DNA of 64,000 nt from an uncultured Candidatus Saccharibacteria bacterium (lineage in GTDB: Bacteria > Patescibacteriota > Minisyncoccia > Phycocordibacterales > CAIZLB01): positions 7,993 through 71,992 of the forward strand of contig CAZKAF010000001.1 of NCBI GenBank assembly GCA_964550955.1, written 5' to 3'. Below, piece after piece: positions 3,751 through 59,459 of the stretch. The position numbers and the translations under genes were made by a program. Every line of letters starts with the position of its first letter. Position 1 is the stretch's first letter. The notes beneath the pieces are model-generated. The model was not told the origin of the DNA. It was given only the letters and a program-made list of their open reading frames with translations, and did no database searches.

Positions 3751-5313
3751 ATGAAAAGCAGATTTGGAAGAGTGAAGGCTTTATTCAGCAAGAAGAAGGT
3801 TTGGATACCTGCCTTGATCATCTTGGCAATCGCCGGCTTCAGCCTGTCCGGCAATAAATCTGACCAAAATGAGACGATTGTCACGGTCGAGCCCGCTACT
3901 TTCGTTCAGGAGGTCTCGGTTACGGGACAAGTCGTCGCGGCCAAGGACGCGAACATGGGCTTTGAGGCTTCGGGCAGGGTCGCGCGCGTAAATGCAGCCG
4001 TCGGAGATGTCGTCAGGGCCGGGCAGGTTCTCGCCTCGCTTTCAAATGCCGACGTCGTCGCCACGGTCGCTCAGCGGCAGGCGCAGGCAAGCGCTCAGGC
4101 TGCGCGATTGGCAGAAGTGCGCACCGGGTCAAGGCAGGAAGACGTGAATATCGCTCAGGCAGAATACGACGGCGCGATAACCGCATACGGCCAGAGCCTC
4201 CAGTCGCTCATCGACGATATCAAGGATGCATATTCGAAAGCGGATGATGCCGTGCGAACGAAAGTCGATCAGCTGTATTCGAATCCGCGAACGGTGAATC
4301 CTGAAATCATCCCGTTCGACAACTATCAGCTTCAGGCATCCCTGAATGCCAGAAGGTTGAGAGCCGGAGAAATTCTGGCCGAATGGAACAAGTCGCTTTC
4401 GACGCTGGCTGCCGATTCGTATTCGACTTCGTACCTGACGGAAGCCCGGGCGAACATCTCGTTCATGAGGGATTTCATGAACGACCTGTCCACGGCGGTT
4501 TCCTCGTTTCAGTCAAGCAGCGCGCTGACGCAGGCGACGCTGGACAAGTACAAGTCCGATGTCTCGAGCGCGCGAACGACCGTCAATTCCGCCCTTTCAA
4601 GCCTTTCTTCCGCCGAGCAGGCATATAAAAATGCCCTGACGGCAAAGCAGACGAAGGAGCAGCAGCTGGCTTTGAGAAAGTCCGGATCGACTTCGCAGCA
4701 GATCGCGCAGCAGCAGGCCCAATATCAGTCGGCAATGGCGGATGTCCAGTCCGCGCAGGCCGCAGTCTCAAAGACGCTCATCGTCGCTCCGTTTGACGGC
4801 GTCGTCACGAAGATCGACATCAAGGTCGGCGAAATCGTCTCAAGCAATGTCAGCGCCATTTCGCTGATAAGCGCTTCGGGCTTCGAAATCGAAAGCTTTA
4901 TCTCCGAAAACGACATTTCCAAAGTGCAGGTGGGACAGCCTGCCCGAGTGACGCTTGACGCGTACGGCCGGGACGTGATCTTCAGGGCGGAGGTCAGCCA
5001 GGTTGATCCGAGCGAGACGGTGAAGGACGGCGTGTCAACGTATAAGACGAAGCTGCAATTCGTCGAGGAAGACGGGCGAATCAGGTCCGGCATGACGGCC
5101 AACACCGTCATTCAGACTGCCGAGAAGCCCGCCGTCGTGATCATTCCTCAAGAGGCGCTCTTTCTCGAGGGCGCGGAGAAAGTCGTGACGGTCGTGGAAG
5201 GGAATTCAAGAACGAATCGGAAAGTGGTCACGGGCGGCATCAATACCAGGGGCGACATCGAGGTGATCGAAGGGCTGACGGTCGGAGAACGGATTGTCGT
5301 CAAGAAAAAATAA
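3751..5313 (+). CDS. HlyD-family periplasmic adaptor (membrane fusion protein) of a MacAB-like efflux system.
   Basis: N-terminal TM anchor, then a beta-barrel segment (VTGQVVAAKDANMGFEASGRVARVNAAVGDVVRAGQVLASL) and a long Ala/Gln-rich coiled coil. It lies directly upstream of an ABC permease and ATPase. Confidence 0.75.
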   Translation: MKSRFGRVKALFSKKKVWIPALIILAIAGFSLSGNKSDQNETIVTVEPATFVQEVSVTGQVVAAKDANMGFEASGRVARVNAAVGDVVRAGQVLASLSNADVVATVAQRQAQASAQAARLAEVRTGSRQEDVNIAQAEYDGAITAYGQSLQSLIDDIKDAYSKADDAVRTKVDQLYSNPRTVNPEIIPFDNYQLQASLNARRLRAGEILAEWNKSLSTLAADSYSTSYLTEARANISFMRDFMNDLSTAVSSFQSSSALTQATLDKYKSDVSSARTTVNSALSSLSSAEQAYKNALTAKQTKEQQLALRKSGSTSQQIAQQQAQYQSAMADVQSAQAAVSKTLIVAPFDGVVTKIDIKVGEIVSSNVSAISLISASGFEIESFISENDISKVQVGQPARVTLDAYGRDVIFRAEVSQVDPSETVKDGVSTYKTKLQFVEEDGRIRSGMTANTVIQTAEKPAVVIIPQEALFLEGAEKVVTVVEGNSRTNRKVVTGGINTRGDIEVIEGLTVGERIVVKKK

Positions 5314-5360
5314 AGCCTCGAATCCTGAATAAATCCATATCATAAGGCCATACATATATC

Positions 5361-6638
5361 ATGTCATTTTTCAAAAAAGAAACAGCTAGAGTCTGGAAGG
5401 TCGGCGTCTTTCTGGCATATCGCCAGATAAAGCGCGCGAGCCTTTGGACTACCATGCTGATCATCGCGGTGATGACCCTGACGTTTCTGAACCTCGTGGT
5501 AGTGAACGGCGTTCTGGTGGGCTTGATCGAGAGTTCCATTGACGCGACTCGGGACAGGGGAACGGGCGATGTCGTGATAACGAATTTGCAGCAGAAGAAT
5601 CAGATCGAGCGAAGCCAGGACATCCAAAACGTTCTCAGGAGCTTGCCCGAAGTGAGGGCGTTTTCTGCCAGGTATCTGGGGAACGGAGTCCTGAATGCGG
5701 ACTATCGGCGCCTGCTCAGGCAGGATGAGAGCTCGAACAGCGTCGGCGTGACCGTTGCGGGCATCGACCCGCTCAAGGAGAATTCAATCAGCCGCCTTTC
5801 AGAATACATAGTCGAAGGGTCATATCTCCAGCCGAACGATCCCGACGGCATCCTGATAGGGTCGAATTTCTTATATAAATATACTCCGATAGAGGTTTCA
5901 GGGTTCCAGACGCTGAAAGATGTCGAGATAGGGCAAAAGCTCAAGCTTACCGTCGGGAGCAGCTCGAAGGAGGTTGTCATACGGGGCGTGGTAAGGTCAA
6001 AAGTCGACTCTACGGATTTCCGCGTCTTCATGATCGAAAGCGAGGTCAGGAAAATGATCGGCAGGAGCGAATTGAACGTGAATGAAATTTCCATAAAGCT
6101 TGCGGCCGGGTCTACCGAGCAGGACGCGCTTCGGGTCAAGCAGCTGCTTCTCAATAACGGATTCGATGTCGGCGCGAGAATCCAGACGTATGTCGAGGCG
6201 CAGCCGAAATTCCTGAAAGACATGTCCGACACCTTCGGGCTTCTCGGAAACATGATCGGAAGCATCGGCCTCGCGGTCGCGTCGATCACCATCTTCATCG
6301 TCATATTCGTCAACGCCATCACCAGGAGAAAATTTATCGGCATTCTCAAGGGCATCGGCATCAGCTCGAAGGCGATTGAAATATCGTATATCATCCAGTC
6401 CATTTTCTATGCCGTTACCGGCTCGCTCCTGGGACTCTTGGTTTTGTACGGATTTCTTGTCCCGTACATCCAAGCGAATCCGATCGATTTTCCGTTCAGC
6501 GACGGATACCTGTATGCGCCTATCAACGGGACGATGCTTCGGGTGGTCGCGCTGCTCATCACGACCGTCATCGCGGGATACATACCTGCGAGAATGATCG
6601 TGAAGAAGAACACGCTCGATGCCATCCTCGGAAGATAA
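5361..6638 (+). CDS. ABC transporter permease, FtsX/MacB-like.
   Basis: N-terminal TM helix, a large periplasmic domain, then a C-terminal 3-TM FtsX-like region (IGSIGLAVASITIFIVIFVNAI...). Operon context supports the call. Confidence 0.75.
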   Translation: MSFFKKETARVWKVGVFLAYRQIKRASLWTTMLIIAVMTLTFLNLVVVNGVLVGLIESSIDATRDRGTGDVVITNLQQKNQIERSQDIQNVLRSLPEVRAFSARYLGNGVLNADYRRLLRQDESSNSVGVTVAGIDPLKENSISRLSEYIVEGSYLQPNDPDGILIGSNFLYKYTPIEVSGFQTLKDVEIGQKLKLTVGSSSKEVVIRGVVRSKVDSTDFRVFMIESEVRKMIGRSELNVNEISIKLAAGSTEQDALRVKQLLLNNGFDVGARIQTYVEAQPKFLKDMSDTFGLLGNMIGSIGLAVASITIFIVIFVNAITRRKFIGILKGIGISSKAIEISYIIQSIFYAVTGSLLGLLVLYGFLVPYIQANPIDFPFSDGYLYAPINGTMLRVVALLITTVIAGYIPARMIVKKNTLDAILGR

Positions 6639-6652
6639 CAACAATCAAAACA

Positions 6653-7345
6653 ATGAAACCAGACCTAAAAGAAAACATCATCGTGACAAGGGAATTGAAG
6701 AAGTCTTTCGTCGACGGGGACAAGGTGACCGAAGTCCTCAAGGGAATCAATCTTGAAATCAGGCGAGGGGAGTTCGTGGCGATCATGGGACGCTCGGGCG
6801 CCGGCAAAAGCACGCTGCTTTACCAGGTCAGCCTGCTGGATCATCTTACCTCCGGCGAGATTTACGTTGACGGCGTCCACGTGACGAACCTGCCCGAAGA
6901 CGCGCGCGTCTCCTTCCGCCTGAAAGAACTCGGATACGTGTTTCAGGATTACGCCCTCCTGCCTGACCTGACCGCAAGGGAGAATGTCGCCGTGCCGCTC
7001 ATCATGCAGGGCGTCGAGACTGCCGAGGCATACAGGATAGCGGAACAGACGCTCGGACGAGTCGGCCTCAGCCACAGGGTCGGGAATCTGCCGTCAAAGC
7101 TTTCGGGAGGGGAGCAGCAGCGCGTGAGCATCGCGCGGGCCATCGCGCATAAGCCGAAGATTCTTTTTGCGGACGAGCCGACCGCGAACCTCGATACCGA
7201 GTCATCGGCGCTGATATTGAAAATATTTCAGGAATTGAACGCGGAAGGCCAGACCATCGTCATGGTAACGCATGAAGACGAGTACGGCGCCGCCACCGAC
7301 CGGGTCATTTTCCTCAAGGATGGACAACTTTCGGAAGAAAGGTAA
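6653..7345 (+). CDS. ABC transporter ATP-binding protein, MacB/LolD family.
   Basis: Walker [13 protein letters not shown] signature [14 protein letters not shown], Walker B ILFADEPT and H-loop VTHE. Confidence 0.9.
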
Positions 7346-7465
7346 ACTAGCGGAAGGTCAGGACTTAGAAAAGGATGCCGGGCCTCGTGGCCCGGACGAC
7401 GGATGCGCTTCTATCGAACGCATCCTCTTTTCTTGCATTTGAAAACAAAATAGAAAGAGGTTGTT

Positions 7466-8545
7466 GTGAGCAATGAAAGAATTCAGAATTTACTGGACAG
7501 CGCATCGGGGGGTCCAAACCCCCTGTTCGCGAAAGCCGTCTTCGGCTTCTTGAATGCGGAGGGCGACTCGGCGTACTTCTCGACAGACAGGAGATTGGAG
7601 GCGGGAAGCCGTCCTGTCTCCCGGGAGTCCATCTTTGACGTGGCGTCCATCACCAAGGCTTTCTTGACGGTTCTCTGTCATGTCCTGCGGGAAAAGACGG
7701 AGAAATTCGACAACGATGCCAGGGTTGCCGGCACGCTTGAGATGCGGGGCGCCTTTACGGAGCATTTGACCGTCGGTCATCTGCTTCAGTTTTGCGCCCA
7801 GTTTACGGAAGGAGGGTATCCTACGCAGGATATCATCGCGCGGAAAAAAGGAGGCGGCGTGAGCGGGCTGCTTGAGGCGCTCCGCACATGCGGGCTTTGC
7901 AAGGAGCCGGGGCTGGAATGGACATACGGAAATCCGCATTCCATCCTTCTCGGGGTCTTTCTTGAGCGCGTCATGGGCGCCCCGCTTGAAGTTCTCATGA
8001 ATGAGCACCTCTTCGGGCCGCTCGGCATGGGAAGCACCATGCTGCGTCCCGTGTCCAAGCTGCACAAGGTCGTTCGGTCCCATCCCGACATCCCTCCCGG
8101 CACGATTCATGATCCGACCGCAAGGATAGCCTTGCAGGAAGGAAGGGCGATCGGTTCTGCCGGCTACTTCTCTTCGGCGGAAGACCTGCTCGGCTTTGCG
8201 GGCATGATTCTGAACAGGGGAATGCGCGGGCAGGATCGCATCCTTTCCGAGGAAACGGCGACATCCCTGCATCGGGGAATCCTGCCGAAATTCGGAAACG
8301 GTTTCGGCAAATGGAACGAGTTCAGGAAGAACCTCAGGCCCGAACCGTTCGCCGATGACTCGGCTCTTCACAAGCTGGGTCATACCGGATGCATCGTTTT
8401 CGTTTCCCCGAGGCACGGGGCATGCGGCGCGGTCCTGACGGATTTTCTCATGGCTTCTTCCGGCGACGGAAAAGACAGGAGGCGTCTGTATGAGCTGTTT
8501 GCCCAGCTGGCGACTTCGGCAGGGCTGCATCGGTTCGAAGCCTGA
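7466..8545 (+). CDS. Serine hydrolase of the beta-lactamase/transpeptidase superfamily.
   Basis: S-x-x-K active-site motif in FDVASITKAF. Size is about 360 aa, typical of class C-like esterases/PBPs. Confidence 0.65.
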   Translation: MSNERIQNLLDSASGGPNPLFAKAVFGFLNAEGDSAYFSTDRRLEAGSRPVSRESIFDVASITKAFLTVLCHVLREKTEKFDNDARVAGTLEMRGAFTEHLTVGHLLQFCAQFTEGGYPTQDIIARKKGGGVSGLLEALRTCGLCKEPGLEWTYGNPHSILLGVFLERVMGAPLEVLMNEHLFGPLGMGSTMLRPVSKLHKVVRSHPDIPPGTIHDPTARIALQEGRAIGSAGYFSSAEDLLGFAGMILNRGMRGQDRILSEETATSLHRGILPKFGNGFGKWNEFRKNLRPEPFADDSALHKLGHTGCIVFVSPRHGACGAVLTDFLMASSGDGKDRRRLYELFAQLATSAGLHRFEA

Positions 8546-8565
8546 TCCGTTCTGGTTGGTCCTGG

Positions 8566-8602
8566 CCCCTCGGCGCGCAAACGCGTGCCGAGGGGCTTTC
8601 AT
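8566..8602 (+). terminator. Rho-independent terminator
   Basis: gcccctcggcgcgc-aaacgc-gtgccgaggggc hairpin followed by tttc. Downstream GC drops sharply. Confidence 0.55.
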
Positions 8603-8826
8603 TACCCCTCTAAACCACCGGCTTCAGCCGGTGTGCGCATTTAAAGACAACGTCATATTATGAATACCACCTGATCAAGCGCACGAGTTGCGTTAACTAT
8701 AATTTATAATTATCTTTGCAACAAACACCCAATGTAAGCGTTTCTTGCTGTGCAATAAAAAATCCTAATGCAGCCTTGCGCACAATTTGCGTATTCTGGA
8801 AAAAGTTGTATTATTTATGTCTCACA

Positions 8827-10041
8827 ATGATCAAAAATAATATCGTTTATAGTGAATATTGCAATTATCGATTTAAGCTAAAACGTGCCGAAGGAAGCTA
8901 TCTTTGGGATGAAAATGGCAGGAAATATATTGATTTTACCTCTGGCTGGAACGTGACAAATTTGGGCTGGAATGACCCCGAAATTAATACTGCGATAAAA
9001 GAGCAGGTAGATAAAAACGTGTTCGCGCCTTTGTGGTGTTCTGACGAAATTCAAGAGAAATACGCTCAGAGACTGACAGAGTCCTTGCCCGAACCGCTCG
9101 ATACGTGCATAAAGACAACGGGCGGAACTGAAGCCGTCGAAGTGTCAATTAAAGTTGCTCGGGCTGCCACAGGACGAAAAAAAATTATTGGTTTTAAAAA
9201 CAGTTACCATGGGCAATTGTTCGCCTCGATGGCACTTGGTTTTACAGACAATTTGGTTGAGAAAATTTTACCATTAGTGCCTGAATTTATTCAGATCGAT
9301 TATCCCAGAGACAATGGTGATAAAGAAGTATTGAATAATTTTCTCATGGACCTTGAAAAAAGGATATCAAATCACGATGTCGCGGCAATCGTTACCGAGG
9401 CAAACATGATTACTGGCTGGGGGTCTGCATTCGTCGCGCCGATTGGGTATCTCAAGGCGGTAAGGGATCTTGTTTCAAAATACGGGACCCTGCTGATCGT
9501 TGATGAAGTGGGAACTGGTTTTTCAAGAACTGGAAAATTATTTGCTATTGAGCATGAGAACGTTGTTCCAGATATGATATGTCTCGCTAAAGGCATATCG
9601 AATGGCGGCGGTGCTTTAGGGGCAGTCGTTGGCAGTTTTGACCTTATTAATAATGTGATTGGAGTCACAAACATCATATCTACTTTTGGATGGGTTCCAA
9701 CGGCTTGTGCGGCAGCGCTTAAAACACTCGAGATTCATCAAAGGGACAAGGTGTGGGAGATGGCTGATTCTAAAGGGAGATATCTTTTGTCTGAATTAAA
9801 ATCTAAGCTGGCTAACAATCCAAAGGTTGTCGACGTAAGGGGTGTGGGCATGGAGATTGGAATTGAAATTCCGGTTGATGCGACCCGGTATAATAATATT
9901 ATAGATTTTGCTGCCAAAGAGGGGTTACATTTGACTGGGGATACAGAAAGCGTGATTCAGCTTATGCCGCCTCTCACTATTTCCAAAGAAGATATTGAAA
10001 AAGGCATTGATATATTAGTTAGGACGCTTTCTTCCTGTTAA
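8827..10041 (+). CDS. Class-III PLP-dependent aminotransferase (ArgD/GabT-like), first gene of an AT-rich operon.
   Basis: LIVDEVGTGFSRTGKLFA is the class-III aminotransferase PLP-region signature, alongside the ...GGTEAVE... motif. The ORF opens at 8716 but the likely start is ATG 8827 (MIKNNIV...). Confidence 0.8.
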   Translation: MIKNNIVYSEYCNYRFKLKRAEGSYLWDENGRKYIDFTSGWNVTNLGWNDPEINTAIKEQVDKNVFAPLWCSDEIQEKYAQRLTESLPEPLDTCIKTTGGTEAVEVSIKVARAATGRKKIIGFKNSYHGQLFASMALGFTDNLVEKILPLVPEFIQIDYPRDNGDKEVLNNFLMDLEKRISNHDVAAIVTEANMITGWGSAFVAPIGYLKAVRDLVSKYGTLLIVDEVGTGFSRTGKLFAIEHENVVPDMICLAKGISNGGGALGAVVGSFDLINNVIGVTNIISTFGWVPTACAAALKTLEIHQRDKVWEMADSKGRYLLSELKSKLANNPKVVDVRGVGMEIGIEIPVDATRYNNIIDFAAKEGLHLTGDTESVIQLMPPLTISKEDIEKGIDILVRTLSSC

Positions 10042-10055
10042 TAAAATATTATATT

Positions 10056-11558
10056 ATGCCAAAAAAATTGACGCCGAGACGGAACAAGCAGAGTGGATTT
10101 TTTGATTCTTTGGCAAAGAAGAGGAGTGAGCATGTCTTTGAATGCTCGGATATTAAAACCCTAAAAGGTTTTCTTAAGAGCCATAAAGAGGTTCGTTATC
10201 CTAAAAAGTTTGCGACGACGTTATATATGTGTGGTAGAAAAAAGATTTCTGGGAAACCTAAGCCACTATCTCACGCTGCTATTAAGGTGCGTTTTTATCA
10301 TGACAAACCGATGCATAGGTTTTTTATACCTAATAAAGATGCGGCGTGTATCACCGAGATCAAGACCCGTCCCAAGGATGACTGGGGGAGTACTGTTCGC
10401 CAGAAAGCTCGCTTTGGAGTTGATAGCATTATGAGTTATCGAGACCTAGAAAACGTGTCTGAAGAAGTGCTTTCGGGAAAAAAGATTAAGAAAATCAATA
10501 ATGAGACTGTATCGTTATCCAGGTGTCTTAAAAAGATAGCGAATGAATACAATCTTGTGACGTTTGAGGCTGTAGCGGCGACATCTTACAGAAGGAGGCA
10601 TTTTGACGCGGATAATCATCGAATTACAGTTGATAGTGACATAAAGTATTATCTTACCGCTACCCACGATAGGGATACATTGTTTTCTTTAGCTAGGCGC
10701 AGACCGGGGTTTGTGCTTGAGGTAAAGGTTGAGCATGTTGGTAAAAATCTTAAGAATGACGATGGCGACCATCTTCTAAAGGAGTTAGGGAAAATACCTG
10801 GTTTAATCGCCGAACCAAACAGAAAAGGAGCAGACCTGTTAGACCTTGTGTTACAAAAAGAACATCTTTTCCATGAGCCAGAACTTAAAGCGAAGTCCTC
10901 ATCAGAGTGGCTCGTCACGGAAAGAGAGATGAAGCTGGACGCAGATAACGATTTACGCGTGCAACTTGGTGGTATACGTTTCCCAGAAAATATCGCCGTT
11001 GGGATGATAAGGAAAGACAAAAGTTATCAAAGAATATACAGTCATGGTTCTAATATTGTTTTTTCAATGCAATATAATAAAGACAGCCCACCCTCAAAAA
11101 GGGTTATCAAATATAAGATGAATCTGAAGAGTTCAAGTTCAAAAATTAGCGTCAGACAGGAGACAGTCGAGCGTTATAGTAAAAAGAGGATATCTGAAAT
11201 ATTAGGAAATCCTGTCGATGATAAGTCGACCTTGATAACGTCCTATTTCTTGAGAGACAGAGCTATCTTGTCTGTGTATCTTAGCGACACAGGGAATGTT
11301 TTTGATATTTGCGTGGATGAAGTAAACTTTATTGGTAAGAAAAAAAGTATACCATTACACCAGCTTGAAATTGAGTTTGTTGGAGTAATCGGTGACAAGG
11401 ACGGTAAAAGTTTTATCAAAAACAATGTCAGGACGATTGAGTCCGATTTTATGGTAATTAGGAAAATCATCATGCATGAATATGCTAGATTAGGCATCGC
11501 TCTGCGAGACTCTCATATTACGAAAGCGATTTGGGCGATGAACCAAGTTTCAAGATAA
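10056..11558 (+). CDS. Hypothetical Lys-rich protein. The N-terminal half has a weak CYTH/VTC-like triphosphate-tunnel pattern.
   Basis: Possible tunnel-fold motifs: KVRFY...ACITEIKTRPKD...VRQKARF, YRRRHFDADNHRITVDSDIKYY, FVLEVKVEH and C-terminal LEIEFVG. The assignment is from memory of family patterns, not a search. Confidence 0.45.
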   Translation: MPKKLTPRRNKQSGFFDSLAKKRSEHVFECSDIKTLKGFLKSHKEVRYPKKFATTLYMCGRKKISGKPKPLSHAAIKVRFYHDKPMHRFFIPNKDAACITEIKTRPKDDWGSTVRQKARFGVDSIMSYRDLENVSEEVLSGKKIKKINNETVSLSRCLKKIANEYNLVTFEAVAATSYRRRHFDADNHRITVDSDIKYYLTATHDRDTLFSLARRRPGFVLEVKVEHVGKNLKNDDGDHLLKELGKIPGLIAEPNRKGADLLDLVLQKEHLFHEPELKAKSSSEWLVTEREMKLDADNDLRVQLGGIRFPENIAVGMIRKDKSYQRIYSHGSNIVFSMQYNKDSPPSKRVIKYKMNLKSSSSKISVRQETVERYSKKRISEILGNPVDDKSTLITSYFLRDRAILSVYLSDTGNVFDICVDEVNFIGKKKSIPLHQLEIEFVGVIGDKDGKSFIKNNVRTIESDFMVIRKIIMHEYARLGIALRDSHITKAIWAMNQVSR

Positions 11559-11563
11559 ATATT

Positions 11564-12718
11564 ATGGATACCCGTAAGAACATAAAATATATTCATGATT
11601 TAATCAAGGAATCTAGGAATAAAATTATCGATATCTTGACCGATATCGAGCCGTATTCGATAGCCGAGTTTGAGATTGATTCAGCATGCACCACATTATC
11701 GGAAATCTTGAATAATGTCGACCAAGTCAGGATTGACGTCAAAAGCATCGCGGTATATTTACCCGTCAACCTGCCCCTTTATTCATTGATTCTATACGGT
11801 ATTGTTCCGAGCCTACAAGCTGAAAATGTTTATGTGCGTCCACCAGTAGAGATAGGCGACATTACGAAAAAGATACGTGACTCATTCTTCAAAACAGTCA
11901 AGAACGTGCATGTTGTGGGTTTACCGAGAAGAGCATTTGGAGATGGGTTTACAGCCTGTGCAGACGTCGTAATATTTACAGGTAGGTACGATCCAGCTCT
12001 TGACCTTATAGAAAAATATAATCCGAAACTTTTTATTTATAATGGATCTGGGGTTAATCCAATTATTGTTGCTAAAGGGGCGGACCTGTCATTAGCAGTT
12101 GAAAAAGTGATTCACGCCAGAATCTTTAACGGTGGTCAAGACTGCTGTGCTCCAGATGCCATTTTTGTGGAGGATTCGATTAAGGCAGAGTTTATGTTTT
12201 TGCTGAAGAATCAGGTTGAAAAAATTAATGTCGGCAGTTATAAAGACCCAGATGTGACAGTAGGGAAGATCTTGGACAAGAAATATATTGCATCAGCAAA
12301 GGCTTTCCTCGAGGATAAAGCAGATATGATTGTTTTTGGCGGAAAGATAGATGAAGAGGGCGGGGTTATCTACCCTACCATTATTGATGAGGTAGACCAT
12401 CAAAGATACGATGATTTTCAAGAGCTGTACGCACCCATTTTCAATATTTTAACATTCAAGACACATGATGAGGTCGAGAGGGTACTTAACTCTAGAGAGT
12501 ATCAAGATTTCGCCATGTGCTACTCCATTTTTGGTAATATTAAAATCAATGTCGCCAACACCATTTTGCTTAAAAATCAGACTCTGCTCGATGTCGAAGG
12601 TGGAAATATACCATTTGGCGGTTATGGAAAAAAATCGAGTTTTGTCAGAAAAAATGGCAAAACTTTTCCAAGACCAATCCTTATCCCCTGGGAAATAAAG
12701 ACGATCGCGGAGGCTTAA
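11564..12718 (+). CDS. Aldehyde-dehydrogenase-superfamily protein, short form (ProA/acylating-ALDH-like, N-terminally truncated relative to canonical ALDH).
   Basis: Catalytic-Cys motif NGGQDCCAPD, then GGKIDEEGGVIYPTII and PFGGYGKKSSF (the ALDH PFGG motif). It is about 385 aa versus about 480 for typical ALDH. The ORF opens at 11531 and overlaps the previous gene; ATG 11564 is the likely start. Confidence 0.6.
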   Translation: MDTRKNIKYIHDLIKESRNKIIDILTDIEPYSIAEFEIDSACTTLSEILNNVDQVRIDVKSIAVYLPVNLPLYSLILYGIVPSLQAENVYVRPPVEIGDITKKIRDSFFKTVKNVHVVGLPRRAFGDGFTACADVVIFTGRYDPALDLIEKYNPKLFIYNGSGVNPIIVAKGADLSLAVEKVIHARIFNGGQDCCAPDAIFVEDSIKAEFMFLLKNQVEKINVGSYKDPDVTVGKILDKKYIASAKAFLEDKADMIVFGGKIDEEGGVIYPTIIDEVDHQRYDDFQELYAPIFNILTFKTHDEVERVLNSREYQDFAMCYSIFGNIKINVANTILLKNQTLLDVEGGNIPFGGYGKKSSFVRKNGKTFPRPILIPWEIKTIAEA

Positions 12719-12761
12719 TAATAATATTTTAGGGGTTGTTATAATACGCACATGTATTATA

Positions 12762-14480
12762 GTGATATCAAATATTATGAAAAATGGTGAGATAATTAAG
12801 GAACTACTAATTCGTGCCGCCGAGAGTCAAAATCTTCAAATGAGGGAGGTGTTGGTCATGTTCTCAAACGACCTGTCAAATGGTGACTATTCTTCCAATA
12901 TCGCCCTAGTGGCTGCAAAGGAGATTAAGACTTCGCCTAAGGCTTTAGCTGATAAATTGGTGGCAGCTTTGTATAAAAATGGCCTGCCTAAAGAAGTAAA
13001 AAAGGTAGAAGTAGCCGGCATCGGTTTTATTAATTTCTACCTGTCTTCACGTTATATGGATGAACAGATCAAGGGTATAGTCGATCTGCCGGAAAAATAT
13101 GGCGCATCTTTGATAAATGCCGGCAAGAAAATTCTCGTTGAGCATTCAAGCCCTAACCTTTTCAAACCATTTCACATAGGCCATCTAATGAATAACACTA
13201 TTGGAGAATCAATAGCTAGGCTCGCTCAATTCTCTGGCGCAGAAGTGACAAAAATATCTTACCCTTCGGATATATCGCTCGGGATTGGAAAGGCAATATG
13301 GGCACTTAACCAAGAAGATGCGATAAGGCTTGATTCTTTTGACAGCCTTGAAGAGAAAGTCGCCTTTTTGGGCGAATGTTATGTGCGGGGTACAAATGCT
13401 TTTATTGATAATGTAAACGTTCAACAGCAGGTTAGAGATATAACAAAAAAACTTTATGACAAGGTTCCAGGTGCAGAATTTGACATGTTTGAAAAGTGTA
13501 AAGAATTGAACCTGTCGTATTTCAAGTCTATCATCGAAAAACTTGGTTCAAGTTTCGACTCTTTTATTTTTGAAAGTGAGGCTGGTGTAGAAGGCGAAAA
13601 GATTGTTTCAGAAAATATTGGCAAGGTTTTTGAGAACAGCAACGGGGCAATCATATATAGGGGTGAGGATGAGGGTTTGCATACTAGGGTATTTGTTAAT
13701 CGCGAGGGCTATCCCACATATGAATCAAAGGATATAGGGTTACTTTCATTGAAGTTCAAGCGCTACAACCCAGATATATCAATTTTTGTTACGGATAATG
13801 AACAAAGAGCATATTTTGAGGTTGTTTCTTCTGCCGCAAGTAAGATTGACAAAGATTGGAGCGATAAGACGATACATCTTACTCATGGAAGAATGACATT
13901 TAAAGGCAAAAAAATGTCATCGCGTCTAGGTGGCGTTCCCCTTGCGACGACCATAATAGATGCCGTATCTGAAGAAGTGAAAAGCCGTAAGGAAGATCTG
14001 GATAATAGTAGTGCTGAGGCGATATCAATTGGTGCGGTGAAGTTTACTGTCCTTAGGGTTATGGCAGGAAAAGACATAAATTTTGACCCAGATACGTCAC
14101 TTTCTTTTGAGGGTGATTCGGGTCCATATCTTCAATATACCGCAGTAAGAGCGGCATCAATCCTTAAGAGGGCAAAAGAGGGGAATATGGTCAGTGAGAC
14201 TGTGAATTTTACTGAGGATAGAGATATCAGCAAGGTCGAAAGAATCGTCGTGCGTTTCCCGGAAGTTGTCGATCTGGCCATAAAGGAATGGTCGCCACAT
14301 CATTTGGTAACGTATCTTTTGGAGTTGGCGCAAGCCTTCAACGGTTGGTATGTAAATACAAAAGTATTAGATTCTTCAAATCCATCGATGCAAAATAACA
14401 TCATGTTAACATCGGCTGTATATACCGTAATCAAAAACGGTCTCAGGCTTCTGGGTATCCAAGTTCCTGCGAGTATGTAG
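12762..14480 (+). CDS. argS: Arginine--tRNA ligase
   Basis: HIGH region SSPNLFKPFHIGHLMNNTIGESIARL matches the ArgS pattern (SANPTGPLHVGH...GDSLAR). There is an N-terminal Arg_tRNA_synt_N-like segment, and the C-terminus ends ...PASM as ArgS proteins do. The gene lies inside the AT-rich segment. Confidence 0.85.
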   Translation: MISNIMKNGEIIKELLIRAAESQNLQMREVLVMFSNDLSNGDYSSNIALVAAKEIKTSPKALADKLVAALYKNGLPKEVKKVEVAGIGFINFYLSSRYMDEQIKGIVDLPEKYGASLINAGKKILVEHSSPNLFKPFHIGHLMNNTIGESIARLAQFSGAEVTKISYPSDISLGIGKAIWALNQEDAIRLDSFDSLEEKVAFLGECYVRGTNAFIDNVNVQQQVRDITKKLYDKVPGAEFDMFEKCKELNLSYFKSIIEKLGSSFDSFIFESEAGVEGEKIVSENIGKVFENSNGAIIYRGEDEGLHTRVFVNREGYPTYESKDIGLLSLKFKRYNPDISIFVTDNEQRAYFEVVSSAASKIDKDWSDKTIHLTHGRMTFKGKKMSSRLGGVPLATTIIDAVSEEVKSRKEDLDNSSAEAISIGAVKFTVLRVMAGKDINFDPDTSLSFEGDSGPYLQYTAVRAASILKRAKEGNMVSETVNFTEDRDISKVERIVVRFPEVVDLAIKEWSPHHLVTYLLELAQAFNGWYVNTKVLDSSNPSMQNNIMLTSAVYTVIKNGLRLLGIQVPASM

Positions 14481-14582
14481 GTTTGTTTCGGGTAATTTTA
14501 CTTTTTAAATAAAAGTTGTATGATATTGTCATAAGGAGAAGAACCTTAAAAATCTACAGTCAAAAGACCAACAACTAACCAA

Positions 14583-14593
14583 GGGGGGGGGGG
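14583..14593. repeat. G11 homopolymer tract
   Basis: aaggggggggggggcg read directly from the sequence; intergenic. Confidence 0.9.
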
Positions 14594-14710
14594 CGTCATG
14601 CCTATTGTGGTCCGAGTATCTGCATGCCCGACCAGGGCGAAGAAGGAAGCGTAGAAATCTGTCATAGGCTCACTGCTGCCGTCGAAAGCATCGAGGGGCT
14701 TGAACTCAAA

Positions 14711-14744
14711 TGACCAACCACCAGCTCATCGCTGGTGGTTGGTC
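14711..14744. repeat. Perfect 15-bp inverted repeat with a 4-nt loop (strong stem-loop).
   Basis: tgaccaaccaccagc-tcat-gctggtggttggtca; no clear T-tract follows. Confidence 0.9.
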
Positions 14745-14864
14745 ATTGATAAATTCGGAGATTGTGCTAAAAGTATGATGAATCTCTCAGGCGAACTTGA
14801 TTGTTCGCGGCCAAGTTCATTTGTTAAGCGCATAAAACCATAACCAAGAAAGGGAACACAGAAG

Positions 14865-15227
14865 ATGACTCCAGGCATCAATAGCATCGTCAGGCAGGTT
14901 GAATTCGATGAGGACGTAACTTTTTTGCTGAAGGATCCGCATTCCCGAAGCGAATCAGGGGCGGTGCACTTTCAAGGATTCGTCACGGTCCTCAAGAATG
15001 TGGCAGGGCCCGTTCAGGCGGAGGATGACAAGTGGCTGTTCGGGTTCGTCGTTTCTTTCTTCTCCGATGGGAAGATTCAGTGCGACGTGTATCAGGACGG
15101 CACGATCATCGGTCATCTGACCAGCGATAATCCTTCCGACGTTCCGCTGCCGGAATCAGGCAATGAGCGGCTGTGCAAATACGTCCTCGATGCGATCAGG
15201 AGATATCGCGAGGAAGAGGAAGGCTGA
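14865..15227 (+). CDS. Hypothetical protein (120 aa)
   Basis: Clean ORF with host-like codon usage, followed by a strong terminator. No recognisable motif. Confidence 0.5.
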   Translation: MTPGINSIVRQVEFDEDVTFLLKDPHSRSESGAVHFQGFVTVLKNVAGPVQAEDDKWLFGFVVSFFSDGKIQCDVYQDGTIIGHLTSDNPSDVPLPESGNERLCKYVLDAIRRYREEEEG

Positions 15228-15248
15228 ATTTGCCTGCCGAAAACTTGA

Positions 15249-15296
15249 AAGCCTCGCGTGCGCCCATGCACGCGAGGCTTTTCTTTCGCTTTTTTC
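15249..15296 (+). terminator. Rho-independent terminator
   Basis: 13-bp stem aagcctcgcgtgc/gcacgcgaggctt with loop gcccat, followed by ttctttcgcttttttc. Confidence 0.65.
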
Positions 15297-15368
15297 AGTA
15301 TTTCTGCTATATTTTGACTCACGTGCATATCCGTCGCGGAACCTGCAATGCGTAGCTACACATAATAT

Positions 15369-17279
15369 ATGAATCTTAAAAACATCCGAAACTTCAGCAT
15401 CATCGCTCATATTGACCACGGAAAGTCCACGCTTGCCGACCGCATGCTTGAGCTTACCAATACTATTGAGAAGCGAAAGATGATGAACCAGGTTCTCGAC
15501 AACATGGAGCTTGAACGGGAAAAAGGCATTACGATCAAGATGCGGCCGGTGCAGATGCATTATGCGGTCAAGCCTGATGTCGCCGCCGCGAAAGGCATAG
15601 AAGTGGGCGAGTATCAATTGAACCTCATCGATACCCCGGGCCATATCGACTTCTCATATGAAGTATCCCGCGCGCTCAAGGCGGTAGAGGGTTCCATTCT
15701 TCTGGTTGACGCGACGCAGGGCGTTCAGGCTCAGACATTGACCACGCTTCGAATGGCGCAGGATGTCGGCCTGAAAATTATCCCGGTGCTTTCCAAGGTC
15801 GATTCGCCACTCGCCCGGCTTGATGACATCAAGGAAGAAATGATCTCGCTTCTCGGCTGCGAGCTTGAAGATATCATCGAAACGTCCGGCAAGACGGGGC
15901 AGGGCGTTGAAGGATTGTTGCAGGAAGTCATCAAAAAGATCCCCGCGCCGGTCGAGGAAATCGTTCAGTCCGGAAGCTTCCGGGGCCTCGTCTTCGACTT
16001 TCAATATTCAAATCATAAGGGCGTAATCGTCTTCGTTCGAGTCATGGACGGATCGGTCAAAAAAGGCGACGAGCTGCTTTTCAAAATCGCCGATGAGAAG
16101 TTCTATGCGCTTGAAGTCGGCATCTTCACGCCGGGCGAAGTGGCGACCGGAACTCTCGATGCGGGCCAGATCGGCTACATCGTTACGGGCATCAAGCAGC
16201 CGGGCATCGCATCGGTGGGAGATACCATCACCCTTCTCAAGAAGCCGCTTCCCGAGCTTGCAGGTTACATGAGTCCTTCGCCCGTGGTCTGGGCTTCGGT
16301 GTATCCGGAGGATGCTGACGACTTCGAGCTTCTCAAGCAGGCGCTCGGTCGGCTGAGGCTTTCCGACTCGGCCTTTTCTCATGAGGAAGAATCTTCAGGT
16401 TCTCTCGGGCGAGGCTTCAGATGCGGTTTCCTCGGACTCCTTCACTTGGAAATCATTACTGAGCGACTGAAGCGGGAATTCAATCTCAATCTTGTCATAG
16501 CGACGCCGAGCATTACCTACGAAGTGACGCTCAGGGGCGGATCTCACGGAGCGGCGGTCCAAAACAGCCTGGGAAATATTTATTCCGGGCAAATAAAGGT
16601 GAACGAAGCGGGAGAGAAAACCGTGATGGTATATTCTCCTTCGCTTTTTCCGGACCATGGACAGTACGAACGGGTCAGGGAGCCATGGGTCAAGCTTTCC
16701 ATAATAACGCCGGACGCATACACCGGTCCCATCTATCAGCTCTTATACGATCACGAGGCCGAGCTTCGAGACACCGTCTCGTTCGGCGACGGCCGCGCGC
16801 AGCTTGTCATCGACATGCCGCTTCGGGAGTTGATGAGAAACTTTTTCGATGAGCTCAAGAGCATCTCTTCCGGATATGCGTCCTTGTCATACGAGTTTGA
16901 AGGACTGAGGGATGCGGACGTCACTCGGATGGACGTGCTCGTTGCCGACGAGCCGATTGAGGCTTTCACTAAAGTGGTTGCGAACAGAAGGACGGACGAG
17001 GAGGCGAACAAGACGGTAGACCGGCTTGAAGCCGTGCTTCCTCGGCAGCTTTTCACGACCAAGATTCAGGCGAAATGCAATGGGCGAATTATCGCGTCGC
17101 GAACTCTTTCCGCGCTCAGAAAAGACGTTACCGGATATCTGTACGGAGGCGACATTACTCGAAAGATGAAGCTCCTGGAAAAGCAGAAGAAAGGAAAGAA
17201 GAAGATGCTTGAGCGAGGCAGGGGCCAAGTGAACATCCCGCACGACGTGTTCTTGAAGATGATGAAGACGGGAGAATAA
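15369..17279 (+). CDS. lepA: Elongation factor 4 (LepA)
   Basis: MNLKNIRNFSIIAHIDHGKSTLADR...DNMELEREKGITIK...LIDTPGHIDFSYEVSR...; the LepA-specific C-terminus (...GRGQVNIPHDVFLKMMK) and about 600 aa length. Confidence 0.9.
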   Translation: MNLKNIRNFSIIAHIDHGKSTLADRMLELTNTIEKRKMMNQVLDNMELEREKGITIKMRPVQMHYAVKPDVAAAKGIEVGEYQLNLIDTPGHIDFSYEVSRALKAVEGSILLVDATQGVQAQTLTTLRMAQDVGLKIIPVLSKVDSPLARLDDIKEEMISLLGCELEDIIETSGKTGQGVEGLLQEVIKKIPAPVEEIVQSGSFRGLVFDFQYSNHKGVIVFVRVMDGSVKKGDELLFKIADEKFYALEVGIFTPGEVATGTLDAGQIGYIVTGIKQPGIASVGDTITLLKKPLPELAGYMSPSPVVWASVYPEDADDFELLKQALGRLRLSDSAFSHEEESSGSLGRGFRCGFLGLLHLEIITERLKREFNLNLVIATPSITYEVTLRGGSHGAAVQNSLGNIYSGQIKVNEAGEKTVMVYSPSLFPDHGQYERVREPWVKLSIITPDAYTGPIYQLLYDHEAELRDTVSFGDGRAQLVIDMPLRELMRNFFDELKSISSGYASLSYEFEGLRDADVTRMDVLVADEPIEAFTKVVANRRTDEEANKTVDRLEAVLPRQLFTTKIQAKCNGRIIASRTLSALRKDVTGYLYGGDITRKMKLLEKQKKGKKKMLERGRGQVNIPHDVFLKMMKTGE

Positions 17280-18815: not shown

Positions 18816-18890
18816 GCCCTCGTAGTTCAATGGATAGAACGAGCCCGTCCTAAGGGTTTGATGTCGGTTCGATTCCGGCCGAGGGCACCA
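18816..18890 (+). tRNA. tRNA-Arg(CCT)
   Basis: Cloverleaf folded by hand: acceptor GCCCTCG/CGAGGGC, D-arm GTTC-AATGGATA-GAAC, anticodon arm AGCCC-GTCCTAA-GGGTT (anticodon CCT), T-arm GTCGG-TTCGATT-CCGGC, discriminator A and an encoded CCA. Confidence 0.85.
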
Positions 18891-58072: not shown

Positions 58073-58143
58073 TGCGGGATCGTCTAATGGTAGGACTGCG
58101 GATTTTGGTTCCGCCTATCTAGGTTCGAGTCCTAGTCCCGCAG
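58073..58143 (+). tRNA. tRNA-Gln(TTG)
   Basis: Acceptor TGCGGGA/TCCCGCA (a U1:A72 pair as in bacterial tRNA-Gln), D-arm GTCT-AATGGTA-GGAC, anticodon arm GCGGA-TTTTGGT-TCCGC (anticodon TTG), T-arm CTAGG-TTCGAGT-CCTAG, discriminator G, no encoded CCA. Confidence 0.8.
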
Positions 58144-58230
58144 CAACTTAGTTTTTCGTATCTAGCGACCTAGAGGGGTCAAAATACGTTAATTCCTAAA
58201 AACCCTTGTTTGTGGGATAATTGAGTCATT

Positions 58231-59454
58231 ATGAATCAGGCTCAAAAGAAAGAAAAATTCTATTTTTATAAAGGGAATATTAATGTTCTCGATAAGTTAG
58301 AAGATAAAACTAAAGAAAACATTCTCGCTCAGATTCAAAAAGAAATCTTACAGATTTTTGATGTAAAGAATTTATCTTTTTTACTTGGATCGGGCTGCTC
58401 ATCCTTTGTCAAAGAATCCGAGCAGATCGGGATTCCTACCATGGAACCTTTAGCAAAATTATTTTATGCGACACTTAATGCAGGCGATAAGGATGTTTTA
58501 AGGGATATTGTAAAGATAGATATCTCAATTGCTCCTTTTAATAACAATCTGGAAAGTTTTTTAGAAGTTTTGTTTAGCTTCAATTTTATTTATGACGTCC
58601 AGGGTGATAAAGCGCTTAAGCAAAAAATCCAGTCTTTGATTGATAAAACTAAAGAATTCATTCTTGAGAAATGTATTAACAAAGCAAATATAGCTCATAC
58701 TGATGTTATAGATTTATACAAGTTGTTTTATAAAAAACTTGTATATAGAAATAATAGCTTGTCAAAAGTTAATATTTTTACGACTAACTATGATTTGTAT
58801 TCAGAAAAGGCTTTGGACCAGCTCAGTATTTTATATAGTAATGGTTTTTCAGGAAATATAGAGAGATATTTCAATCCCACTACTTTTAACTATGCTTTCG
58901 CCGAACAGATGGAATTGAGTTCTAATAAATGGAATGTGATAGATAATTTTGTTTACCTATACAAACTTCATGGATCAGTAAATTGGGTAGAGACGGACAC
59001 AAAAGGAAAAATATTTAATATTCAAGAAATACAGGATCCAACAGAGAAAATCGAAGCATCGATGATTTACCCGACTCCTATGAAGCAGACTTCTAGTTTT
59101 GGTTCCCCGTACTCTGACTTATTTAGGGAATTTCAAAAAAAGTTAATGCAAGAAAAAAATATACTTGTAACAGCGGGGTACAGTTTTAGTGATCAACACG
59201 TTAATAATTTGATCTATCAAGCTTTAACAATCCCCACATTTCGTATTGTTATATTTCAAGATCCTGCAAAAGAAAGTATCAAAAGACTTCTAGATCTCAA
59301 TGATCCTCGTATATGGATTATTGGAGGGGAAATTGATTCAGAAAATATCCATTACTTTAGCTACATTGTTAATAACTTGTTACCTGATATTCGTCAGCAA
59401 AAAATTGAAAGTAGCATAGAGCAAGCTATAAAGAGTCTTATAGATAAAAAATAA
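58231..59454 (+). CDS. SIR2-family (SIR2_2-like) NAD+-dependent/NADase domain protein
   Basis: Rossmann Gly motif LLGSGCS, IFTTNYD and LYKLHGSVNW match the SIR2_2 defense-associated family signatures (TTNYD; HG with catalytic His). Confidence 0.75.
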   Translation: MNQAQKKEKFYFYKGNINVLDKLEDKTKENILAQIQKEILQIFDVKNLSFLLGSGCSSFVKESEQIGIPTMEPLAKLFYATLNAGDKDVLRDIVKIDISIAPFNNNLESFLEVLFSFNFIYDVQGDKALKQKIQSLIDKTKEFILEKCINKANIAHTDVIDLYKLFYKKLVYRNNSLSKVNIFTTNYDLYSEKALDQLSILYSNGFSGNIERYFNPTTFNYAFAEQMELSSNKWNVIDNFVYLYKLHGSVNWVETDTKGKIFNIQEIQDPTEKIEASMIYPTPMKQTSSFGSPYSDLFREFQKKLMQEKNILVTAGYSFSDQHVNNLIYQALTIPTFRIVIFQDPAKESIKRLLDLNDPRIWIIGGEIDSENIHYFSYIVNNLLPDIRQQKIESSIEQAIKSLIDKK

Positions 59455-59459
59455 CTCAA

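Follow-up and report, generated by a model that had tools for sequence, protein, structure and literature searches.

A predicted tandem triphosphate-tunnel protein encoded with an aldehyde dehydrogenase-like protein and an arginyl-tRNA synthetase in a Patescibacteria genome

A 64,000-nucleotide stretch of an uncultured Candidatus Saccharibacteria genome (contig CAZKAF010000001.1, positions 7,993 to 71,992; hereafter the window) carries, at positions 10056 to 11558, a gene for a 500-residue protein whose single chain very probably forms two barrels of the triphosphate tunnel metalloenzyme (TTM) type, with structure prediction pointing to a VTC-like barrel in the N-terminal half and a CYTH-type barrel in the C-terminal half. 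This gene and its partners almost certainly form a conserved gene module. The explanation that we favor overall, and on which our confidence is evenly balanced, is that the tandem tunnel protein would act as the activating partner in an aldehyde dehydrogenase (ALDH)-like module with an arginine/arginyl-tRNA synthetase (ArgRS) theme. The features of the gene are as follows.

10056..11558, plus strand: predicted tandem triphosphate-tunnel protein, 500 aa, ATG start, TAA stop
10116..10859, plus strand: predicted N-terminal VTC-type tunnel domain, about residues 21–268, with R23-x-E25-x-V27 at beta-1 (VTC in relatives, Vtc2/Vtc4 matches)
10860..11555, plus strand: predicted C-terminal CYTH-type tunnel domain with full acidic patch, about residues 269–500 (model match and motifs)
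10920..10934, plus strand: ExExK signature of the C-terminal tunnel, E289-R-E291-M-K293 (alignment)
11361..11375, plus strand: putative ExE metal-binding strand, Q436-L-E438-I-E440, invariant, equivalent to AtTTM3 E169/E171 (PMC4641920)

The start ATG at 10056 and the TAA stop ending at 11558 were read directly in the letters of the window, and the open reading frame (ORF) listing agrees. The protein is identical to a 500-aa ORF already recorded as a called gene on a 696,200-bp NCBI contig, and the coordinates given in a preliminary description of this DNA were thus exact. That description also called the protein basic, which it is (pI 9.73, with 94 Lys and Arg against 63 Asp and Glu), though not as a family-wide trait. 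The majority of its relatives have a pI of 5–6.5, and the overall basicity must therefore be local. High pI was considered as a sign of nucleic-acid binding and was dropped, since family members are mostly acidic.

Predicted structure

The AlphaFold2 model, with a 26-sequence family alignment as input, has a pLDDT of 88.8 and a pTM of 0.87, residues 1–20 alone being disordered. It shows two beta-rich halves, each with 8–9 long strands and then helices; the strands of the N-terminal half run from E23-30 to E219-226. Searched against the PDB with Foldseek, the full model first matched the Vtc4 polyphosphate polymerase (3g3q, E=4e-10, prob 1.0). Further matches were to Vtc2/3, YgiF, PH1819, the Sulfolobus TTM, CyaB-like cyclases (2aca, 2gfg) and the Cet1/Pct1 RNA triphosphatases, as well as to Med18/20, which share the barrel. 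The prob 1.0 matches are almost exclusively TTMs and the Med18/20 fold relatives. A Foldseek search on an AlphaFold model had been proposed in the preliminary description, where a model without the tunnel fold, or another confident family, was to count against a tunnel. The top matches were tunnel enzymes, and both outcomes came out in favor of the tunnel reading.

Modeled alone, the C-terminal half reaches a pLDDT of 92.5 and matches YgiF (5a60, E=1.4e-5, TM 0.51), Pct1/Cet1 (E about 4e-4), the vaccinia D1 triphosphatase and the mouse thiamine triphosphatase (ThTPase). Viral VTC-like/SPX and "mRNA 5′-phosphatase" protein models match too. No CYTH match (PF01928) was obtained in 27 C-half sequences by a Pfam scan at E≤10, and a C-half profile searched against the PDB returned no CYTH chain, only chance WD40 (Prp19) matches. 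The assignment of this half thus rests on fold and motifs. A comparison of the two halves with hhalign was weak (probability 4.6%), so that an internal duplication is not demonstrable from sequence.

The earlier suggestion of a CYTH/VTC-like tunnel in the N-terminal half is supported by Pfam VTC in relatives, a Vtc2 profile match and the fold match to Vtc4/Vtc2. The C-terminal half had been described as lacking a recognizable match; it is instead predicted to form a second tunnel barrel, whose ExExK motif (E289-E291-K293) had been overlooked. The EIEF near the C-terminus is present as described, not as an isolated motif but as the putative ExE metal-binding strand of the C-terminal tunnel.

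Conserved residues of the two tunnels

The family alignment comprises 26 full-length sequences with a mean column identity of 29%, and its invariant residues are almost all charged. In the N-terminal half, these are R23, E25, R79, K103, K117, R180, D193, E222, and K224. In the C-terminal half, E289, E291, K293, K354, D421, Q436, E438, E440, and K490 are invariant, and R367, R400, and R402 nearly so. The ExExK motif was found in 26/26 full-length members and in the 27 C-half sequences. All the strings quoted in the preliminary description (KVRFY, ACITEIKTRPKD, VRQKARF, YRRRHFDADNHRITVDSDIKYY, FVLEVKVEH, and EIEF) occur in the translation, and their Arg/Lys/Glu pattern is not due to chance, with R79, K103, K117, R180, D193, E222, K224, and E438/E440 invariant. 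Residues in predicted strands are paired at i, i+2 (K77/R79, E101/K103, K117/R119, R180/H182, E222/K224, K352/K354, R400/R402, and E438/E440).

Martinez et al. reported that hydrolase and cyclase TTMs carry a four-Glu acidic patch (AtTTM3 E2, E4, E90, and E171) that binds a second metal, and that Vtc4p has basic residues at the patch positions, which guide the growing polyphosphate (polyP) chain; an adenylate cyclase is one of the TTMs with two metals and an acidic patch (PMC4641920). In our protein, the C-terminal tunnel has Glu at the patch places E289, E291, and E440 and at the site-1 metal place E438 (equivalent to AtTTM3 E169), and its conserved residues follow in the order ExExK, K354, R367, R400, R402, D421, ExE, the makeup of a canonical CYTH-type tunnel that takes two metals. 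The N-terminal tunnel has basic residues at the first and last Glu places (R23 and K224), as in Vtc4, and carries R23-x-E25-x-V27 in the stead of ExExK. Residue 27, the place of the beta-1 Lys, was equated with Vtc4 K200 by motif position. The window protein has Val there, the ArgS-linked clade V/G/C/P/I/S, and P0008 and nearly all the more distant family members R/K. Hothorn et al. are said to have found in 2009 that Lys200 is essential in Vtc4.

From the patch Glu set of the C-terminal tunnel, set against R23/K224 and the missing beta-1 Lys of the N-terminal one, the C-terminal tunnel is therefore probably the catalytic site, and the other probably a divergent tunnel that binds a ligand or product. 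The absence of the beta-1 Lys and of VTC partners speaks against classing the protein with the Vtc4-type polyphosphate polymerases, and the lack of a profile match speaks against placing it in Pfam CYTH.

Family and sequence searches

The window protein gave 0 matches to Pfam and NCBIfam (in Pfam none even at E≤1, VTC included), and a direct sequence search of the PDB gave only a chance match. A word-indexed search of 5.8 billion proteins returned the protein itself, P0002 (73% identity) and P0003 (32% identity), and the same search with the 26-sequence profile returned no proteins beyond those 3. An exhaustive hidden Markov model search of 1.84 billion cluster representatives yielded 54 proteins at E≤1e-3, of which some 30 have the full length (460–508 aa). 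Scans of genome contigs with A1 and with P0004 as queries gave 0 relatives. The family is real but rare.

The relationship to VTC becomes visible in the relatives. Pfam VTC (PF09359) matches residues 42–225 of P0003 at E=1.3e-11 (45 bits, cut-off 23), and the N-terminal half of 18/26 full-length members at E≤0.1. Searched against the PDB, the family profile matches the yeast Vtc2 structure 3g3o (E=0.01).

A conserved gene module

The neighborhood was counted in 11 clade loci, namely the window, L001, L002, L003, L006, L010, L014, L015/16, L059, L060/61, and L085. An ALDH-like gene adjoins the tunnel gene in every clade locus with enough flank, among relatives that are 25–35% identical. A full ArgS gene adjoins in 8/11 (it is absent nearby in L001, L006, and L085) and an aminotransferase gene in 7/11, as well as in L012, where the contig ends before any ALDH-like gene. 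The order and orientation of the module genes are shuffled among loci. The tunnel and ALDH-like genes often touch or share nucleotides, with an overlap of 17 nt in L001 and of 47 nt in L006 and a gap of 5 nt in the window. The nearness of ArgS that the preliminary description had remarked on is real, ArgS being the second gene downstream; it is not an oddity, since the arrangement is kept in relatives about 25–35% identical. No VTC1/DUF4956-type membrane partner, VTC subunit, SPX or CHAD domain was found in the window or the related loci.

Several variants of the neighborhood were observed. The L006 cassette (4879–16148) is part of a mobile element that also encodes a serine recombinase and a prim-pol/AAA_25 protein. 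The order there is radical-SAM/SPASM, NUDIX, aminotransferase, ALDH-like, tunnel, ArgS-N-like and DDAH/arginine-dihydrolase-like (E=1e-72), and then the recombinase and prim-pol. Proteins consisting of the ArgS N-domain only are encoded in L006 (10416–11468) and L014 (5723–6007, 94 aa). At the contig end of L023 (6879–7226), an ORF covers only the ArgS DALR anticodon-binding region, 30% identical to the neighboring full ArgS and 2 kb from an ArgS/ALDH-like pair. The first His of the HIGH motif is replaced by Gly or Ser (GIGH, GVGH, SVGH, SIGH, GINH) in most ALDH-linked ArgS homologs compared (L003, L010, L014, L019–L021, L023, L035, L036, L039, L046, L053, L059, L060, and L079), with HIGN/HVGN in two; HIGH is retained by ArgS of the window and of L002. 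The altered HIGH may be a lineage habit or the mark of specialized paralogs. Nucleotide-metabolism neighbors in L002 and L010 had raised the idea of phage DNA hypermodification, which was dropped after a tblastn search of 50,697 phage genomes gave 0 matches.

The low-GC cassette

In the window, the module takes the form of a four-gene cassette.

8787..14479, no strand assigned: low-GC cassette of aminotransferase, tunnel protein, ALDH-like protein and ArgS, acquired horizontally (GC and blastn block)
8827..10041, plus strand: class-III (omega-type) pyridoxal phosphate-dependent aminotransferase, 404 aa (Pfam Aminotran_3, E=1.3e-90)
11564..12718, plus strand: ALDH-superfamily protein, 384 aa (Pfam Aldedh, E=1.3e-31, first ~130 profile positions missing)
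12777..14480, plus strand: arginine–tRNA ligase (ArgS), 567 aa (TIGR00456, 327.9 bits, cut-off 261.65; canonical HIGH and MSSR)

The 404-aa form of the aminotransferase is the called gene. Its best NCBIfam matches are transaminases of the acetylornithine/ornithine/GABA type, all far under cut-off, and its orthologs in L001, L002, L006, L012, L014, L015, and L085 are 47–86% identical. The window ArgS has the Pfam domains Arg_tRNA_synt_N, tRNA-synt_1d, and DALR_1. No tRNA gene was found inside the window cassette.

GC content is 39–41% per cassette gene against 51–60% in the flanks, and 40% against 53% for the ~5.7-kb block as a whole; in all the related loci it is also low (31–40%). By blastn, a single 5,694-nt block is 79.9% identical to positions 4928–10604 of L002, the contig of P0002. 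This block stops exactly at the cassette borders and the genes flanking it differ, which shows that the four genes were transferred together. The composition and the block indicate that the cassette was horizontally acquired in this Patescibacteria (Candidate Phyla Radiation, CPR) genome. A search of the island borders for att-like direct repeats and an integrase found none.

The tunnel, ALDH-like and ArgS genes are preceded by a similar AT-rich leader (AAATATTAT..ATG), at 10040–10058, 11557–11566, and 12770–12779. A Shine-Dalgarno sequence is not obvious in any of these three leaders, and 5–58 nt separate the genes. The three genes are consistent with one transcription unit.

The ALDH-like partner

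The window ALDH-like protein retains the catalytic Cys194 (12143–12145), the oxyanion Asn69, the E399 equivalent and the GG motif. The place of the general base Glu268 is taken by Asn160 (12041–12043); PDB alignments set N160 against the E of ELGGK and C194 against the catalytic Cys. Orthologs likewise keep the equivalents of Cys302, Asn169, and Glu399 and lack Glu268. Acylating ALDHs are without this Glu, a nucleophile other than water resolving their thioester (PMC4762007). Without the water-activating Glu, thioester hydrolysis would be impossible, and the protein would therefore act as a reductase or a phosphorolytic dehydrogenase.

A metagenome scan anchored on the ALDH-like protein alone returned 342 relatives, and this protein is far commoner than the tunnel protein. 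In the wider set, the Glu268 place is N in 56 sequences, E in 2, and S/D/F/Y/Q/L in the rest. Among 78 non-redundant metagenome loci, ArgS is present in 23, mostly less than 200 bp away (in 10/23 of the loci with 2.5 kb or more of flank on each side), the tunnel protein in 5, and the aminotransferase in 1. The ALDH-like protein is also found fused to other enzymes. In L092 (73–3453), a continuous ORF joins it to a class-I LysRS (PF01921, E=2e-106), and in L082 (4629–7364) to an ANL AMP-binding adenylase (E=1.6e-55). Fusions to Pol-beta nucleotidyltransferase domains occur in L020 (2066–3745), L052, L072, L080, L081, L084, and L090, with single fusions to GNAT (L042), a metallo-beta-lactamase (L047) and a SAM methyltransferase (L068). 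ArgRS, LysRS, ANL and nucleotidyltransferase enzymes all attack the alpha-phosphate of ATP and give an activated acyl or nucleotidyl intermediate. The Glu268-less ALDH-like family suggests a group of undescribed reductases whose substrates would be activated acyl groups or aminoacyl-tRNA, and the association between it and aminoacyl-tRNA synthetases (aaRS) may be a more important lead than the tunnel protein. A tRNA-Arg(UCU) gene lies beside three ArgS/ALDH-like pairs (L017 2305–2378, L019 6495–6569, and L036 4802–4876).

Possible function

We tentatively propose, on the basis of motifs and gene context, that the tunnel protein could be the ATP- or triphosphate-cleaving partner that activates or drives the ALDH-like enzyme. 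The C-terminal tunnel would bind Mg/Mn-ATP or another triphosphate and cleave or transfer it, and the degenerate N-terminal tunnel would hold a phosphorylated ligand or product. The protein would in this way make, or drive the making of, an activated acyl substrate (acyl-phosphate, acyl-adenylate or aminoacyl ester), which the Cys of the ALDH-like enzyme would capture as a thioester. This enzyme would then reduce the thioester to an aldehyde with NAD(P)H, or run the reverse phosphorolytic reaction, and the aminotransferase would interconvert aldehyde and amine. The substrate might be related to arginine, the two candidates being Arg-tRNA/Arg-AMP supplied by the linked ArgRS and a Glu/Orn pair. 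The arginine theme is favored by the DDAH/arginine-dihydrolase-like gene of L006 and the ArgS-N proteins of L006 and L014.

Two versions of this scheme can be drawn. In one (version A), an analog of the C5 pathway, ArgRS would supply Arg-tRNA, its reduction would give argininal, and from this an amine or aminoketone would be formed. By analogy this would account for the aaRS adjacency and the fusions, and would leave the tunnel protein auxiliary. In the other (version B), an analog of ProB/ProA/ornithine aminotransferase (OAT) for Glu/Orn, the tunnel protein would act as an ATP:carboxylate phosphotransferase and move the gamma-phosphoryl group in the manner of Vtc4. This analogy would account for how closely the tunnel and ALDH-like genes are coupled and for the arginine dihydrolase of L006, with ArgS as a metabolic neighbor only. 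A reduction of amino acids coupled to aaRS in CPR, as an arginine (elsewhere lysine) counterpart of the route through GluRS, glutamyl-tRNA reductase (GluTR) and glutamate-1-semialdehyde (GSA) aminomutase, in which argininal would undergo transamination or isomerization, seems rather unlikely. The tunnel protein would there be the subunit handling ATP or triphosphate, a slot that the fused Pol-beta nucleotidyltransferase or ANL would fill in other lineages.

Several points weigh against an activating role in the module. We know of no precedent for a TTM as a carboxylate kinase or adenylase, the known acidic-patch TTMs being hydrolases or cyclases. Where present, ArgRS could itself be the activating enzyme, making the tunnel protein unnecessary; moreover, the linked ArgS may be the only housekeeping ArgRS of the cell. 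Most ArgS/ALDH-like pairs lack a tunnel protein (5/78 loci have one), which argues for an accessory rather than a core step. The distant full-length members in L007 and L008 have no module gene at all. As for the structure, TM-scores to solved TTMs are modest (0.3–0.55), and the conserved residues presumed to face the lumen are placed by i, i+2 spacing on predicted strands and by homology.

Three other functions have to be weighed against the activating role. The protein could be a self-contained phosphate-polymer enzyme, with the C-terminal tunnel as a short-chain polyphosphatase or tripolyphosphatase and perhaps a polyP-binding or -polymerizing N-terminal tunnel, serving phosphate or energy storage and only loosely related to its neighbors, for example by co-regulation. 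The top structural matches to Vtc4 (E=4e-10) and the tripolyphosphatase YgiF, the matches of viral VTC-like/SPX proteins, the acidic patch of the C-terminal tunnel, which is a hydrolase signature (PMC4641920), and the distant family members outside the module all agree with such an enzyme. We nevertheless regard it as improbable. In the clade, the ALDH-like gene is without exception a direct neighbor despite 25–35% identity and shuffled order, with overlapping reading frames; the N-terminal tunnel of the clade lacks the beta-1 Lys; and neither the window nor the related loci hold a membrane partner, SPX or CHAD nearby.

We consider very unlikely an RNA-end enzyme acting on tRNA-Arg, either a Cet1-like 5′-triphosphatase or another phosphotransferase directed at tRNA and working with ArgRS, which would make the module one of tRNA-linked chemistry, processing or repair. 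The tunnel protein tracks the ALDH-like protein better than ArgS, of which L001, L006, and L085 have no full copy nearby, the cassette holds no tRNA gene, and the mostly acidic family (pI 5–6.5) has no recognizable RNA-binding domain. The C-terminal half does match the RNA triphosphatases Pct1, Cet1, and vaccinia D1, and viral "mRNA 5′-phosphatase" proteins as well, but the YgiF match is at least equal to these. In its favor there remain the conserved ArgS adjacency, the stand-alone ArgS N-domain (tRNA D-loop-binding) proteins of L006 and L014, the tRNA-Arg(UCU) genes beside three ArgS/ALDH-like pairs, and the fusions of the ALDH-like protein to Pol-beta nucleotidyltransferase, metallo-beta-lactamase and methyltransferase domains, typical of RNA-end enzymes. 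Finally, a nucleotide cyclase or signaling enzyme, CYTH-type and class IV adenylate cyclase-like, that regulates the neighboring metabolic genes seems highly improbable, even with the CyaB-like putative adenylate cyclases 2aca and 2gfg among the fold matches and an adenylate cyclase among the two-metal acidic-patch TTMs (PMC4641920). These fold matches are weaker than those of Vtc4 and YgiF, effector and receptor domains are absent, no cassette protein matched a PADLOC defense model, and close coupling to an enzyme at the level of translation points to a partner present in stoichiometric amounts rather than to a producer of signals.

Comparison with known systems

The yeast Vtc4p tunnel (PF09359; 3g3q/3g3r) is the best fold match. 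It shares with our protein the basic R23 and K224, and the N-terminal half of relatives passes the VTC threshold. Identity is however about 17%, Val27 stands for the beta-1 Lys, SPX and the VTC membrane subunits are absent, a second tunnel is fused C-terminally, and the context is ArgRS/ALDH-like instead of vacuolar polyP synthesis. The C-terminal half resembles the CYTH triphosphatases (YgiF 5a60, AtTTM3, SaTTM 7nsf, and mouse ThTPase 2jmu; PF01928) in its ExExK first strand, its ExE last tunnel strand and the conserved Lys/Arg on the strands between, and it has fold matches to YgiF and ThTPase. Unlike them, it lacks a PF01928 profile match and CHAD and sits behind a VTC-like tunnel. With the RNA 5′-triphosphatases Cet1, Pct1, and vaccinia D1 it shares the tunnel fold and acidic patch (E about 4e-4), but identity is about 15%, the context is bacterial and there is no capping-enzyme partner.

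Two further likenesses concern the module. The C5 trio (GluRS, GluTR, and GSA aminomutase), to which the tunnel has no homology, also combines a class-I aaRS whose activation step requires tRNA (here ArgRS, and class-I LysRS in L092), a Cys-dependent NAD(P)H enzyme unable to hydrolyze its thioester, and an enzyme of the class-III aminotransferase fold. It differs in that GluTR is not of the ALDH family and the C5 pathway has no tunnel enzyme; the reaction of the cassette is a proposal. Similarly, ProB-ProA-OAT and the carboxylic-acid reductases (ANL plus reductase) combine ATP-dependent carboxylate activation, a thiol reductase of the ALDH family and an omega-transaminase. Shared, too, would be the translational coupling of the enzyme that makes a labile intermediate with the one that uses it, and one ALDH-like relative is ANL-fused. 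Here, in contrast, the activating protein would be a TTM, and ProA is absent from the 25 best NCBIfam matches of the ALDH-like protein.

Tunnel metalloenzymes are, to our knowledge, single barrels that hydrolyze, cyclize or polymerize triphosphates. In the literature we found no description of a conserved double barrel joining a Vtc4-like and a hydrolase-type tunnel, and no Pfam or NCBIfam profile covers it. Nothing relevant was found there on NrtL, on CYTH with ArgRS, on tandem TTMs with ALDH, or on ArgRS/ALDH in Patescibacteria. By predicted fold and motifs the tunnel protein would belong to the TTM superfamily, its tandem architecture and context being new; the pathway behind the cassette is possibly new as well. 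The host group is otherwise metabolically minimal, and the cassette genes are mobile there. If the proposal were true, this would be a second case, after glutamyl-tRNA reductase, of aminoacyl-tRNA diverted into small-molecule metabolism, and the tunnel fold would gain a new biochemical role. The four cassette proteins are small and soluble, so these hypotheses can be tested directly in vitro.

Other features of the window

To the left of the island, a gene of the serine beta-lactamase/penicillin-binding protein family abuts it (7466–8545, plus strand; Pfam Beta-lactamase, E=7e-32). A 370-aa antisense ORF overlaps this gene (7490–8602, minus strand) and is likely to be a shadow ORF caused by high GC. 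The spacer that follows argS contains a perfect inverted repeat of 17 nt around a 5-nt loop (14709–14747). Immediately before lepA (15247–15282) there is a strong hairpin of 16 bp with a T-run. A tRNA-Arg(CCU) gene (18816–18890) lies 4.3 kb downstream, outside the island. Finally, a second island was observed at 58231–61487, with a GC of 31–33% against about 55% and two ORFs of 407 and 675 aa. It begins 87 nt past tRNA-Gln(TTG) (58073–58144) and resembles a tRNA-adjacent insertion.

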